From the NCBI GenBank assembly GCA_963813535.1, contig CAWEZH010000003.1, positions 32,001-96,000 on the forward strand: a DNA stretch of 64,000 nucleotides, written 5' to 3'. Made by a program: the position numbers and the translations under genes. The first letter of the stretch is position 1; the number at the start of each line of letters is the position of its first letter. Source of the stretch: an uncultured Chloroflexia bacterium (GTDB lineage: Bacteria; Chloroflexota; Limnocylindria; Limnocylindrales; CSP1-4). Shown here piece after piece: positions 26,973 through 31,108 of the stretch. The notes under the pieces are model-generated. The model saw nothing but the letters and a program-made list of their open reading frames with translations, ran no database searches and was not told where the DNA came from.

Positions 26973-27155
26973 GGTTTCCCTCCTCGTGGTTCCGAAGTCA
27001 TGGTCGACTGACAGCGCCGAACAATGTGCCAAAGACGGCGGAGACGATACAACCACCATGCGATTCACACTTGGTTCGGATCACTTAACGTTCGGCCCCG
27101 TCGTTCGGGCGGAGCCCTCCGAGGACGACGGCGGAGCGCCGCGTAGACTGCCCGG

Positions 27156-28025
27156 GTGAGCCTCTATTCGCTGGCCGGGCGGGGCAGCCCGGGGGATCCA
27201 GGGGACCTGATCGCGCCGACGTTCATCGCCGCGTTCGACGGCTGGGTCGACGCGGGGAGCGCGGCGACGACCGCCCTCGAAAGCCTACTCGACGACGCGG
27301 TCGACGTCGCGACATTCGATCCGGACGCGCTCTTCGACTATCGGGCCCGGCGCCCGACGCTGCAGATCATCGACGGTCGGCTCGCCGAGCTGACCTGGCC
27401 CGAGCTCGTGGTCCGTCGCGTTCGGTTCAGCGAGCGTGATCTGCTCGTTCTGGCCGGTCCCGAGCCCGACGATCGCTGGCAGGCCTTCGCGACCGATTGC
27501 GTCGAGCTCGCACGCCGGATGGGCGTGGTCGAGTGGGTCAGTCTCGGCGCGATCCCTGCCGCGGTCCCCCATACACGGGACGTCCCGATCCTCGGCACGA
27601 CATCCGAAGCCGGGCGGCTGCGCGGCGACATCCAACCGGGCCCGGCCGGTCTCCTACGGGTGCCGGCGGCGGCCATCAGCGTCCTCGAGATGGCGATGGC
27701 CGAAGGCGGTATCCCGGCGGTGGGCTACTTCGCCCAGGTGCCGCACTACGTCTCCGGGCCGTATCCGGCCGCCTCTCTGGCGTTGATCGAGGCGCTCGGC
27801 CGGCACCTCGGCGTCGAGCTGCCGACCGGCGACCTGGCCGACGAAAGCGGTCAGCTCCGGACGCGACTCGACACCGCGACCGCGCTCGAGGAGACGACGC
27901 GCAGCTACGTCGAACGCCTCGAGTCGATGGTCGATGAGCAGCGCCTTCCCTCTGGCGACGATCTGATCGGCGAGATCGAGCGCTTCCTGCGCGAAGGTGG
28001 CACCGAGGGGCGCCGGCCGAACTGA
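27156..28025 (+). CDS. PAC2 family (proteasome assembly chaperone-like) protein
   Basis: Motifs AFDGWVDAG, FDYRARRP, GPEPDDRW, VPHTR and AQVPHY. A TAGACT -10 lies 6 nt before the GTG. Confidence 0.88.
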   Translation: MSLYSLAGRGSPGDPGDLIAPTFIAAFDGWVDAGSAATTALESLLDDAVDVATFDPDALFDYRARRPTLQIIDGRLAELTWPELVVRRVRFSERDLLVLAGPEPDDRWQAFATDCVELARRMGVVEWVSLGAIPAAVPHTRDVPILGTTSEAGRLRGDIQPGPAGLLRVPAAAISVLEMAMAEGGIPAVGYFAQVPHYVSGPYPAASLALIEALGRHLGVELPTGDLADESGQLRTRLDTATALEETTRSYVERLESMVDEQRLPSGDDLIGEIERFLREGGTEGRRPN

Positions 28026-28053
28026 GGCGCGCCGGCTGCCGACGCCACGCCTG

Positions 28054-28088
28054 TACATGACAGAACCTGTCAACTCTGCGGGTATGCT
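28054..28088 (+). promoter_or_regulatory. WYL-regulator operator plus leaderless promoter
   Basis: TGACAG-AAC-CTGTCA perfect palindrome (28058-28072), then a TATGCT -10 six nt before the ATG. Confidence 0.75.
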
Positions 28089-28094
28089 GAGCCG

Positions 28095-29085
28095 ATGCGT
28101 GCCAGCCGCCTGGTCAATATCCTGCTGCTGCTCCAGAGCCGTGGCGGGATGACTGCTGCCGAGCTCGCACGAGAGCTCGAGGTGTCGGTCCGGACCGTCC
28201 ATCGCGACGTCGAGGAACTGAGCGCGGCCGGCGTCCCGATCTTTGCGGAGCGGGGGCCGACCGGCGGGATCCGCCTCGTGGACGGCTACCGCACGCGCCT
28301 CACGGGCATGACCGCCGACGAGGCCGAGGCCCTCTTCCTCTCCGGACTGCCCGGCCCCGCTGCGCAGCTCGGCCTCGGGACGGTCGTTGCAGCGGCCCAG
28401 TTGAAGGTGATGGCGGCGCTCCCGCCGGAGCTCCGGTCACGGGCCTCGCGCCTCGTCCAGCGCTTCCATCTCGACGCGGCCAACTGGTTCCAGGCGAACG
28501 AGGAGGTGCCGCACCTGGAGACGCTGTCGACCGCGGTCTGGGAGGGCCGGAGCGTGGCGATCGACTACGACCACGGCGACGAGGTCGTCCCCCGGACGCT
28601 CGGGCCGCTGGGGCTGGTGCTGAAGGGCGGGATCTGGTATGTCGTTGCCTCGATCGATGGTCAATTGCGCACGTATCGAGCGTCACGAGTCGTCGCGGCG
28701 ACCCTCCTCGACGTCTCCGTCGACCGACCGGACGATTTCGATCTCGCGGCGTTCTGGGTCGAATTCGAGCACGGCGTTCGAGCGGGAGGCGCCGACGATC
28801 ACCGTCGACGTCCGGGTCCGGGAGGACCAGGCGTGGCGGCTCAACCAGGTCTTCGGGCGCGGGACACTCGCCGGCGGTGAACGAGTCGAGGAGACAGGTC
28901 ACCCCGGCACCATCCGGCTACGCCTGCGCCTCGGCTATCCCGACGAAGCGCCGGGATTGCTCCTGGCCGTCGGCCACAACCTCGAGGTCGTCGGTCCGCC
29001 GGAGGTACGCGACAAGGTCGTGATGCTCGCGAACCGGATCGCCGCGCGCTACCGGGACGAGGCGCCGCTCGAGGCTGGTCGCTGA
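28095..29085 (+). CDS. HTH-WYL-WCX transcriptional regulator (YafY/YobV-like), frameshifted near 28764
   Basis: HTH ELEVSVRTVHRDVEELSAAGVPI, WYL domain PLGLVLKGGIWYVVA and RTYRASR. The C-terminal WCX part (SSTAFERE...LEVVGPPEVRDKV) is in another frame, and removing one T from GAATTCGAGC rejoins it. Confidence 0.88.
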
Positions 29086-29225
29086 GTGATGCGGCCGTTC
29101 CGGCTGACGACCCGGCTGGTGTCGGGCGCATCGCTCGGTCGAAGGAGTCGACGGGTGCGGAGCTCCGTCTCGATCTCGCGCTCTCGGTCGGCTTGGATGA
29201 TGCGGGCGAGTTCGATGTTCAGCAT
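29049..29225 (-). CDS. 58-aa small protein, convergent with and overlapping the WYL gene
   Basis: MLNIELARIIQADREREIETELRTRRLLRPS..., a charged helical N-terminus. A CACACT -10 lies 6 nt upstream and a WYL-type operator further upstream. Confidence 0.6.
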   Translation of the reverse strand: MLNIELARIIQADREREIETELRTRRLLRPSDAPDTSRVVSRNGRITQRPASSGASSR

Positions 29226-29231
29226 GTGGTG

Positions 29232-29266
29232 AGTGTGACCGTCATACATGCCGGAACATGTCATGT
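29232..29266 (-). promoter_or_regulatory. Second WYL-type operator and weak -10 for the small protein gene
   Basis: Plus strand 29245-29266 TACATGCCGGAACATGTCATGT matches TACATGACAGAACCTGTCAACT at 28054 in 17 of 22 positions. Confidence 0.65.
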
Positions 29267-29304
29267 TTCCCGGGGCTCGGCGAAATCGCGCCTTGCACGC
29301 CTCC

Positions 29305-29354
29305 AAAGACACCGCAAGGCCGCTCGACGTCCCCACGCGCGAGCGGCCAGCGGT
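29305..29354 (-). terminator. Intrinsic terminator-like hairpin
   Basis: GGCCGCTCG/CGAGCGGCC stem extended by ACCGC/GCGGT, ending in TGTCTTT on the minus strand. Confidence 0.55.
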
Positions 29355-29531
29355 TCGAAATTCGGTTTCGATCGGTTCGGTATTCGGTTGTTCTTCGGTT
29401 GTTCTTCAGTTGGAGCGGTGACGGACCACCGTCCGGTAAAGTTTGCCGGCTCCGTCGTCACCCGACATCCCGCCGGAGGATCGACGCGTCGCCGGTCGAT
29501 GGTCTCGATGTCCGGCGGTCCGCTTCTTGCT
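29305..29531 (-). ncRNA. Candidate ~230-nt structured small RNA with ACCGA repeats
   Basis: TACTGT -10 at 29543-29538, 5' stems (GACATC/GATGTC, GGAGC/GCTCC, GACGG/CCGTC), an A-rich tract with five ACCGA copies, and a 3' terminator. No convincing ORF. Orientation is inferred. Confidence 0.45.
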
Positions 29532-29588
29532 GACCGCACAGTAGGTGCGTCACTGCAATGCGCCACCCGACGCCCGACATGAACCAGC

Positions 29589-29604
29589 ATGGACATTTGT
29601 CCAT
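29589..29604. promoter_or_regulatory. Palindromic operator ATGGACA-TT-TGTCCAT
   Basis: Perfect 7-bp arms overlapping the CATACT -10 of the DUF4112 gene. A near copy lies at 35525. Confidence 0.55.
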
Positions 29605-29613
29605 ACTCGACTA

Positions 29614-30114
29614 ATGGCTGTGCACGGCGATGTCATCGGTCTCTCGCGCCGCGAACGATTCGGGGCAGCCGAGCGACGCATCGGACGCGTCACGAAGGTC
29701 CTCGACGAACTCTTCGAGGTACCGGGGACGTCGTTCAAGGTCGGCCTCGACCCGATCATCGGGCTGATCCCGGTCGCGGGCGATGCGGTCGCCGCGCTGG
29801 TCGGCGGCTGGGTGATCCTCGAGGCGGCGCGCTTCGGTATCCCGCGGATCGTCCTGGCCAGGATGGTGCTCAACCTGTCCGTCGACCTCGCCATCGGCCT
29901 GATCCCACTGATCGGCGACCTGACCGACTTCGTCTTCACGTCGAACTCGCGGAACCTCGACCTGTTCCGTCGCCATGCCCTCGACCCGGAGTCGTCGACC
30001 CGCGGTCAGCAGGCCCTGTTCGTCGGCCTGGCGCTATTGATCGTCGGGATCATCTGGCTGATCGTGAGGGCGGTCGGCGCGTTCCTCGGCGCGTTGGGGA
30101 GCGTCCGCCTCTAG
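29614..30114 (+). CDS. DUF4112 domain membrane protein
   Basis: LDELFEVPGTSFKVGLDPIIGLIPVAGD, RMVLN and IPLIGDLTDFVFTSNSRN. Confidence 0.9.
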   Translation: MAVHGDVIGLSRRERFGAAERRIGRVTKVLDELFEVPGTSFKVGLDPIIGLIPVAGDAVAALVGGWVILEAARFGIPRIVLARMVLNLSVDLAIGLIPLIGDLTDFVFTSNSRNLDLFRRHALDPESSTRGQQALFVGLALLIVGIIWLIVRAVGAFLGALGSVRL

Positions 30115-30130
30115 GCGCCGCCCGCGCGTC

Positions 30131-31108
30131 CTACCCCGTCGAAGCGATACGGGGCACATTCGACGAGGCAGCCTTCTCCTCGAAGCGGCGAGCGGCCTCG
30201 TCGAGCTTGACGAGATGCTCAGCCAGCCGCCGGCGGGCGTCCTCCGCGGCCGCGTCGAGTCCCTCGAGCTCGAAGATCCTCCAGTGGCGAAGGATCGGCA
30301 TGATGACCTCGTCGTGGTGGACGCGCAGGTCGTAGATGCCGGCCTTGGCGATCTGCGCCGCCTTCCGGATGAACCCTGGGATGCTCGCTCCGGGCATCTC
30401 GAACGCGAGCACCTCGTCGACGATCGCGCGGACCGCAGCCGACGGCTGCACCTTCAGGGCAGCCCCGAGGATGTCGCGGTAGAACACCATGTGCAGGTTC
30501 TCGTCGGCGGCGATACGGACCATGATCTTGTCGGCCACCGGGTCCGACGAGTAACGCCCCGTATTGCGATGGGCGATGCGCGTCGCGAGCTCCTGGAAGG
30601 CGACGTAGGCGAGGCCGCGCAACGTGCTCGGCGCGGCATGGTCGTAGCCCTGTTGGAGTTGCGTCATGCGACCGCGCTCCAGGGCGACCGGGTCGATGTT
30701 CCGGGTGACCGTCAGGTAGTCCCGCAGGACGATCGCGTGGCGGCCTTCTTCCGCCGTCCAGCGACCGACCCAGTTGATCCATGCCCCATCGCCCTTGCCG
30801 AACATCCCGTGGATCAGCCGGTGGTACGAGGGCAGGTTGTCCTCGGTCAGGAGCCCGATCTCGAACGCCGTCTGGGCGACGCCCGTGAGCCGCGGCTGGT
30901 CGGGCGTCCAGGGCTCCTTGTCGAAGTCACGACCGAGCCGGTACGGGATGTAGTCGTGCGGGAACCACTCCTGCGCGACCTTGGCGTGCCGATCGAACAG
31001 GCGACCGGCCTCGGGCTCGAGCTCGACGAGCAGCGCCCGGTCGGCCTCCAGCGCTTCGTTGGGATCGAGCTTCTGGCCAGGCTCGAGGCGTCGGGTCGTA
31101 TCGGTCAC
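30131..31108 (-). CDS. Acyl-ACP desaturase (DesA1-like diiron enzyme)
   Basis: Motifs EWFPHDYIP, LLTEDNLPSYH, WTAEEGRH, FQELAT and DENLH. AGGAG RBS with GTG start. Confidence 0.92.
   Translation of the reverse strand: MTDTTRRLEPGQKLDPNEALEADRALLVELEPEAGRLFDRHAKVAQEWFPHDYIPYRLGRDFDKEPWTPDQPRLTGVAQTAFEIGLLTEDNLPSYHRLIHGMFGKGDGAWINWVGRWTAEEGRHAIVLRDYLTVTRNIDPVALERGRMTQLQQGYDHAAPSTLRGLAYVAFQELATRIAHRNTGRYSSDPVADKIMVRIAADENLHMVFYRDILGAALKVQPSAAVRAIVDEVLAFEMPGASIPGFIRKAAQIAKAGIYDLRVHHDEVIMPILRHWRIFELEGLDAAAEDARRRLAEHLVKLDEAARRFEEKAASSNVPRIASTG

Follow-up and report, generated by a model that had tools for sequence, protein, structure and literature searches.

This account concerns two convergent genes in a window of 64,000 nucleotides, that is, the whole stretch of DNA analysed, from an uncultured bacterium of the Limnocylindria (Chloroflexota). 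The first gene (28095..29085, plus strand) encodes, according to Pfam, a transcription factor built of winged helix-turn-helix (wHTH), WYL and WCX domains, and is divided here between two frames, 28095-28778 and 28771-29085. Facing it on the minus strand is a small open reading frame (ORF), hereafter the micro-ORF (29049..29225), whose coding part, 29225..29052, comprises 58 codons and is followed by TAG (29051-29049). Each gene is preceded by a copy of one palindromic sequence, a putative operator. Relatives across a family of Limnocylindria keep the whole set, both sites with their geometry as well as the regulator and the small ORF, and this joint conservation invites the question of what so compact an arrangement does.

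Operators and promoters

Operator 1 (28054..28075, no strand) is an imperfect palindrome, ACATGACA-N5-TGTCAACT, with the core GAC-N7-GTC, and, if transcription begins at the ATG, lies at about -40 to -20 of the WYL promoter. Operator 2 (29245..29266) reads ACATGACA-N5-CGGCATGT on the minus strand and covers the -35 position of the micro-ORF promoter. The original prediction, made from the letters of this DNA, had paired the two 22-mers found here by direct reading, TACATGACAGAACCTGTCAACT at 28054-28075 and TACATGCCGGAACATGTCATGT at 29245-29266; its coordinates are right, and a recount again gives 17/22 identical positions. The consensus that it proposed has two matches in the window at up to three mismatches, against 0.11 expected, and two matches were reached in 1 of 100 shuffled windows. 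As the two sites had themselves yielded that consensus, an independent test used a symmetrised weight matrix made from 27 sites in the orthologous loci of relatives, the window's own two being excluded. With this matrix, operator 2 is the top place of the genome (32.1 bits) and operator 1 scores 30.5 bits; the third-ranked place in the 3,279,982 bases reaches 17.4 bits, and only 7 places exceed 12 bits. The genome-wide scan for the consensus that had been suggested as a check gives the same picture, with matches at two or fewer mismatches at operators 1 and 2 only (3.28 Mb). The genome holds exactly two such operators, 1.2 kb apart, on either side of one gene. Both are presumably bound by the regulator.

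Operator 1 is followed by CTGCGGG (7 nt), the -10 hexamer TATGCT (28083..28088, plus strand), GAGCCG (6 nt) and the ATG at 28095, a leaderless layout. On the minus strand, operator 2 is followed by (A)TGACGGT (7-8 nt), the weak -10 hexamer CACACT (29232..29237), CACCAC and the ATG at 29225, again 6 nt from the hexamer. A consensus scan of 27800-29700 returned neither a sigma-70-type promoter with a -35 hexamer nor a terminator. Both genes had been proposed to be leaderless. As regards geometry, this stands for the WYL gene, where TAnnnT lies 5-8 nt 5' of the start codon in 107/115 loci (and an operator-type site within 80 nt 5' of it in 105/115), and for the micro-ORF of close relatives, in which an NAnnnT hexamer, 6 nt and ATG follow one another in 25/25; it does not extend to distant relatives, whose micro-ORFs are preceded by a leader of 40-80 nt that contains a Shine-Dalgarno sequence of the GGAG type. 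In the 25 leaderless relatives the first base of the micro-ORF hexamer is C in 23, G in 2 and T in none, as expected for an activator-dependent promoter. The distance between the operator's proximal GNC triplet and the -10 hexamer is 11 nt in 68/98 WYL promoters (overall 8-13, save for one outlier at 3) and 12 nt at the window's micro-ORF promoter. Both promoters have the arrangement of the activating subgroup of WYL factors, namely a site at fixed distance over the -35/-26 region and no -35 hexamer.

The WYL regulator and its frameshift

The frame 28095-28778 contains HTH_11 (4e-16, residues 8-59) and WYL (PF13280, 1.5e-15, residues 139-203) domains, and the WCX domain (9.8e-13, also by Pfam) is encoded in the frame 28771-29085; in the orthologues, which are unbroken and 324-368 amino acids long, all three belong to the same polypeptide. 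The WYL models of PADLOC match at 1.6e-42. Residues W181 and Y182 of the WYL domain are invariant across 30 orthologues. The nearest solved relatives are DriD (1.7e-10, over residues 2-310) and PafC (1.4e-7). The residues with which DriD contacts single-stranded DNA (ssDNA), conserved in its homologues, are named in PMC9186387. In our own mapping, taken from one pairwise HMMER alignment, Y168, R178, Y192, R204 and R207 of DriD align with Y158, R167, Y182, R192 and R195 of the regulator, all of them invariant in the 30 orthologues, and R176 aligns with a valine, so that five of the six conserved contact residues are kept. The protein thus combines an N-terminal wHTH, a central WYL domain and the nucleic-acid-contact residues of the latter.

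The change of frame is due to one extra T at 28764..28765 (plus strand), seen by alignment of the DNA with five orthologues: the window has GAATTCG and all five have GAA-TCG. Contigs from four sequencing runs (X1, X2, X4 and X20) were also compared. The extra T is missing from DNA contig X1 and from RNA-library contig X20, both of relatives about 97% alike; the 100%-identical contigs of run X4 end before 28764, a position that the contigs of the window's strain do not cover. The best-matching runs carry a fraction of 0.22-0.29 of the sampled words, which means that they hold relatives and not the window's strain. The frameshift is either an assembly error or a loss specific to this strain.

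Apart from this regulator, the genome has a single WYL-domain gene (G000:C2:1806065-1808121, at 8-2064 of locus L027), which encodes 341 amino acids with HTH, WYL and WCX domains and a weak HTH_PafC match. Upstream of it, with a 4-bp overlap, is an ORF of 344 amino acids without a Pfam match, and downstream a CAP-domain ORF. The idea that this second pair is pafBC was dropped because the host is a member of the Chloroflexota (Limnocylindria) and not an actinobacterium.

Conservation of the pair and nature of the microprotein

Orthologues of the regulator, sought with its N-terminal 228 residues at E<=1e-20, occur in 16/24 other genomes of the genus and in 0/16 genomes of the sister family. Among the genus loci, namely those of 15 relatives and the window, the upstream site is present in 16/16 and the downstream site in 13/16; of the other three loci, two have no downstream site within the threshold and one ends early. 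A profile built from seven micro-ORFs matches 99/401 genomes of the order, of which the weakest may be chance matches, with 98/358 in the window's family (17/44 genera) and 0/42 in the sister family. In a sample of the phylum, at E<=1e-5, it matches 2/23 genomes of the window's family and 0/377 genomes of 81 other families. When the 30 best loci are picked by this profile alone, a convergent WYL gene is accompanied by both sites in 28 of them; of the remaining two, one is truncated and one has no WYL gene nearby. The original prediction had proposed looking for both sites and the small ORF in the neighbourhoods of WYL orthologues, and these counts (13/16 genus loci with both sites, 28/30 loci reached from the micro-ORF) bear it out; the condition that it had named as refuting, a second site or ORF missing from relatives, does not apply.

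A scan of species-representative genomes with an alignment of the WYL protein gave 524 confirmed relatives, of which the best 80 (54-83% identity) were examined. Of these best 80, the upstream site is found in 65, the downstream site in 67 and both in 55, and a match to the micro-ORF profile adjoins the downstream site in 38. In 61 loci a site lies 900-1700 nt past the start codon of the WYL gene, and in 46 of these an ORF with a helix motif of the [DE]R.R..-type runs from that site in the direction of the WYL gene, as against 10/1362 random places; among the 15 loci missed by this motif, 9 have a micro-ORF profile match in our combined reading. Seven loci (L063, L084, L085, L086, L094, L115 and L123) with the same WYL gene (57-67% identity), most of them with operators, are labelled as Saccharimonadales, Steroidobacteraceae, Polarisedimenticolia, Acidimicrobiales and Methylomirabilota. 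These non-Chloroflexota labels are probably errors of binning or labelling rather than signs of transfer. A literature search, with supplements outside its scope, found no description of a WYL/microprotein pair, and no work on WYL factors in Limnocylindria.

The micro-ORF evolves as a protein. Its frame is open in 28/28 loci, and in the helix region the non-synonymous rate (dN) is 0.33 and the synonymous rate (dS) 0.85, a ratio of 0.38, with dN/dS of 1.4-1.8 in three other frames of the same 28 loci. Its invariant Arg residues are encoded by up to four different codons, and conservation at the protein level holds down to 33-40% identity. The conserved part, M-x3-E-L-A-R-x-I-x-A-D/E-R-E-R-E-I-E-x3-R-x-R-R-L-L, is followed by a variable tail rich in Pro, Ala, Ser and Arg, which in the window ends in QRPASSGASSR. 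AlphaFold2 gives a single helix at residues 2-28 (predicted local distance difference test, pLDDT, of 85, 96 and 85 in blocks of residues 1-30) and a low-confidence tail. The original prediction had spoken of a highly charged, helical microprotein: the 58 residues are highly charged, without a hydrophobic stretch, and the product is predicted to be a soluble 27-residue Arg/Glu-rich helix with a disordered tail.

The microprotein is one of many. In a 90%-clustered database, 218 proteins match at E<=0.01, all called hypothetical, and in a library of representatives at 50% identity the family comprises at least 280 clusters of 55-90-residue proteins, none annotated. Its members are often called with a false N-terminal extension, and gene callers mostly extend or miss the micro-ORF. 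Searches of Pfam, NCBIfam and PADLOC matched it to no family, look-alikes in the ESM Atlas belonged to unnamed clusters only (top match 0.88), and a search for fused forms in longer proteins gave eight matches, all of them N-terminally over-called copies of the small ORF. A complex of WYL dimer and microprotein, predicted from alignments A2 (twice) and A3, scored 0.00 against a mark of 0.32, informative neither way.

Some relatives have variants of the arrangement. In L015, L017, L019, L020, L081, L096 and L136 the convergent ORF behind the operator has about 90-95 codons and starts M(Y/F)LE(T/L)SA(M/R)YLLE(L/R)H...; it bears a loose likeness to the microprotein helix, and its leader has a CGCGATCG...GATCG inverted repeat. 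In L052 (G227:C1:710565-713744) a second type of micro-ORF, MYHVVFAHIIQAEREREIEE..., stands at 1501-1680 on the plus strand and has a separate operator (27.7 bits). It adjoins cupin-like and histidine-kinase-like ORFs, some 5.5 kb away from the WYL gene. G016 and G008 have micro-ORF profile matches 6-8 kb from the WYL gene. Such distant copies point to a regulon with a detached target in some relatives.

The proposed circuit and its setting

What, then, might this pair of genes be? The reading to which we give a probability of about 0.6 is a closed regulon of two promoters, governed by a ligand-switched factor like DriD, SiwR or PafBC, with the microprotein as its output. A homodimeric wHTH-WYL-WCX factor would recognise the GAC-N7-GTC palindrome, which occupies the -35 position both in the leaderless promoter of the factor itself and in the promoter of the convergent small gene. 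Upon binding of a ligand by the WYL domain, most likely ssDNA arising from DNA damage, both promoters would fire, and the sole output beside the regulator would be a small cytoplasmic protein acting as an effector on a cellular target. With only two operators in the genome, the microprotein would be the only such output. This is in essence the autoregulated two-gene circuit with a microprotein effector that was first proposed, and at the level of comparative sequence it has come through: sites, geometry and ORF are conserved. By analogy with the pairs DriD-didA and DdaA-aciT, the microprotein may be a damage-induced checkpoint effector. The genome has LexA, so the WYL circuit would be a side branch of its damage response.

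As for the known systems, the best solved relative, DriD of Caulobacter crescentus, is a wHTH-WYL-WCX homodimer, as is proposed for the factor here. The GAC-N7-GTC core is common to the DriD site, ATACGAC-N7-GTCGTAT (PMC13004042, PMC13010146), which lies over the -35 position, at constant spacing from the -10, in target promoters devoid of a -35 element (PMC13004042). A main output there is also a small protein: DriD activates didA, and the target of DidA is FtsN (PMC9186387). However, DriD is not autoregulated and acts on several promoters, whereas here there are two sites, one at the regulator's own promoter. The flanks of the half-site also differ (ACATGACA here, ATACGAC in DriD), and so do the convergent, overlapping order of the genes and the host, a member of the Chloroflexota. 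The microprotein, for its part, differs from DidA in having no detectable relation to named families.

SiwR of Mycobacterium smegmatis, which is paired with msmeg_1357-56 and was compared by its published description, is a homodimer with a very small regulon beside its own gene; it binds ssDNA through its WYL domain, its 19-bp imperfect palindrome lies between -35 and -10, and activation needs the -26 region (PMC10693628). Unlike the factor described here, SiwR has as its targets the DinB/YfiT-like enzymes of a divergent operon instead of a microprotein. DdaA of Acinetobacter, whose site was searched by likeness to the DriD core, is a WYL activator whose targets include a damage-induced inhibitor of cell division, aciT, but it also drives recA and other repair genes (PMC13010146).

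PafBC of mycobacteria belongs to the same domain family. Its GTC-containing element, at -23 to -28, stands 12 nt before TAnnnT in promoters that have no -35, and the mode of action is sigma adaptation; the motif is tGTCgg(N10)tA(N3)T, in which PafB reads GTC with two arginines (PMC8635444). The operators here likewise contain GTC, and their spacing of 11-12 nt is close to those 12 nt. The comparison holds for the family and the layout of the promoter, but not for membership in PafBC, which is heterodimeric, reads a non-palindromic half-site, governs about 150 genes and is tied to the Pup-proteasome system. Here there is a single gene with a palindromic operator, and a search of the 92.9%-complete genome revealed neither a Pup ligase (PF03136) nor a proteasome subunit (PF00227).

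Could the factor instead be a repressor of the CapW/BrxR type? It would then block RNA polymerase at both promoters until released by its ligand, with negative autoregulation. CapW and BrxR are homodimeric wHTH-WYL-WCX proteins that sense ssDNA, which releases them from their own bidirectional or adjacent promoters, and an operator laid over the promoter is equally their layout (PMC11662680). The span of about -40 to -20 suits such a tentative alternative, as does an operator at the factor's own promoter, which is typical of autorepression and which the activator DriD does not have; the distal half-site, moreover, holds ATGACA, a 5/6 match to TTGACA. Yet 20 nt separate this -35-like hexamer from the -10, too wide a gap for it to serve unaided, and no -35 hexamer is found at a spacing of 16-18 nt. 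The -10 of the micro-ORF is kept weak, its first position being C or G but never T in 25/25, and the proximal half-site is fixed at a PafBC-like distance from the -10 that a repressor does not need. The nearest solved relatives by sequence, DriD and PafC, are activators, and CapW and BrxR repress phage-defence operons, whereas no defence genes lie nearby here and the promoter layout fits activators better. We lean modestly towards activation, in which the factor would stand in for the -35 contact, with positive autoregulation, and hold repression with de-repression by the ligand to be a minority possibility. Activator and repressor models alike predict that the ligand raises the expression of the microprotein.

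Two further readings were weighed. Were the +1 frameshift real, the circuit would be dead in this strain: the factor would be without its WCX dimerisation domain and the micro-ORF uncontrolled. The extra T is present in the assembly, it is missing from all five orthologues and from the two contigs of close relatives, and WYL genes are split in two further assemblies of the genus (L020 and L038). We nevertheless find this rather unlikely: the operators, the -10 hexamers and the micro-ORF are all intact, the operators score as high as those of relatives, and the change is a gain of one base in a TT run of a three-contig assembly. The gain of a single base in a short run is a common type of assembly error. 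The other reading turns on the overlap of 37 bp between the micro-ORF and the 3' end of the WYL gene (stop codon at 29083-29085), from which antisense feedback had been proposed, and would make the minus-strand ORF untranslated, the conserved unit being an antisense or convergent RNA that acts on the WYL mRNA. The overlap is real and unchanged in all of 21 close relatives, a terminator-like site between the two genes is lacking, the opposite frame has a similar dN/dS, and the transcripts could overlap across the whole micro-ORF if a conserved hairpin beyond its promoter ended the WYL transcript. Elsewhere, however, the overlap is lost, with gaps of 205 and 300 bp in two genera and only about 4 bp of overlap in a third, so that antisense feedback cannot be the conserved function, and the genera with gaps still keep the N-terminal helix. 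The frame that is open throughout, the ATG exactly 6 nt past the -10 when leaderless or behind a Shine-Dalgarno sequence when leadered, protein conservation at so low an identity and a confidently predicted helix make the RNA reading highly improbable. The genus tail, QRPAS(T/S)GAxSR, lies in our reading opposite the last 11 codons of the regulator, with coinciding third positions. The motif is still faintly recognisable in the two genera without gene overlap, which hints that the microprotein, and not the regulator, sets the sequence there.

Several observations weigh against the closed, ligand-activated regulon. One is the frameshift itself, since in this genome the regulator is interrupted, and another is the operator position shared with repressors. 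The antisense frame whose third codon positions are shared with the micro-ORF has a dN/dS of 0.43 and is open in 24/28 loci, with stops in 4/28; dN/dS alone thus cannot choose the strand, and the choice is made because the context of start codon, promoter and Shine-Dalgarno sequence fits the micro-ORF. Among the proteins searched, no homologue of known function was found for the microprotein. DidA is a membrane protein; the microprotein, charged and predicted to be soluble, has like didA a WYL site at its promoter, but lacks a hydrophobic segment that could anchor it in the membrane. Finally, the RNA-library contig covers part of a relative's WYL gene and not the micro-ORF, and is not proof of transcription.

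The hairpin (29312-29353, within the stretch 29312-29421 of the window), CCGC-AA-GGCCGCTCG / loop / CGAGCGGCC-A-GCGG, is conserved, with compensatory changes in relatives (GGCC/GGCC versus GACC/GGTC, and GCTCG/CGAGC versus GTCC/GGAC). It is followed by 2-5 copies of the T-rich unit GTTGTTCTTCR on the plus strand, odd in a genome of 69% G+C. A WYL transcript running to it could be antisense across the entire micro-ORF. The WYL transcript could terminate there, past the micro-ORF; alternatively, the hairpin could be part of the leader of the next gene, a DUF4112 gene.

Farther along, at 29421-29533, about 110 nt of non-coding sequence upstream of the DUF4112 gene are conserved in about 14 aligned loci and contain nested inverted repeats (CGGACCACCG...CGGCGGTCCG and ATCGAC...GTCGAT). 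There is no Rfam family in 27000-30500, and the segment 29300-29545, taken as a single RNA, folds no better than its shuffled versions (z -1.66). A perfect palindrome, ATGGACA-TT-TGTCCAT, at 29589-29604 is the only exact match in the genome, and relatives have ATGGACA-N2-CGTCCAT; it looks like the operator of another regulator. It falls inside the longest call of the DUF4112 ORF (from a GTG at 29545), in which the Pfam match begins at residue 44, and the true start is probably downstream of that GTG. On the other side, directly upstream of the WYL gene, lies a PAC2-family gene (27156-28025, proteasome assembly chaperone 2-like), although neither a proteasome subunit nor a Pup ligase was found in this genome (92.9% complete). 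The PAC2-family gene is kept in synteny in 64/121 loci and the DUF4112 gene in 60/121, counts limited by the length of the flanks. Such conserved neighbours speak for a chromosomal, vertically inherited module and not for a mobile defence island.

WYL factors are emerging as widespread sensors of ssDNA, in damage responses independent of LexA as well as in defence. To our knowledge, the examples studied all come from Proteobacteria, Actinobacteria and a few Firmicutes. The module described here would extend their logic to uncultured soil Chloroflexota of the Limnocylindria, with one sensor, two operators and one tiny output. What is new is the proposed closed, convergent circuit of two operators in Chloroflexota, with a new family of microproteins as its sole output. 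The match of the operator core and of its placement to those of DriD and PafBC suggests that activation by replacement of the -35 element is older and broader than the two phyla in which it has been solved.

A bolder proposal, which we hold to be improbable, is that the microprotein founds a class of stress effectors, marked by an Arg/Glu-rich helix and a conserved C-terminal QRPAS(T/S)GAxSR tag and serving as the sole output of a WYL sensor. Such an effector would bring a core machine to a halt (that of replication, division, transcription or translation), or would bind ssDNA or the sensor itself and so end the pulse. If this were true, the pair would be a minimal, closed generator of damage pulses. 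So compact a pair could be rebuilt and tested in a laboratory host, and the target of the microprotein, once found, would name a new stress effector.

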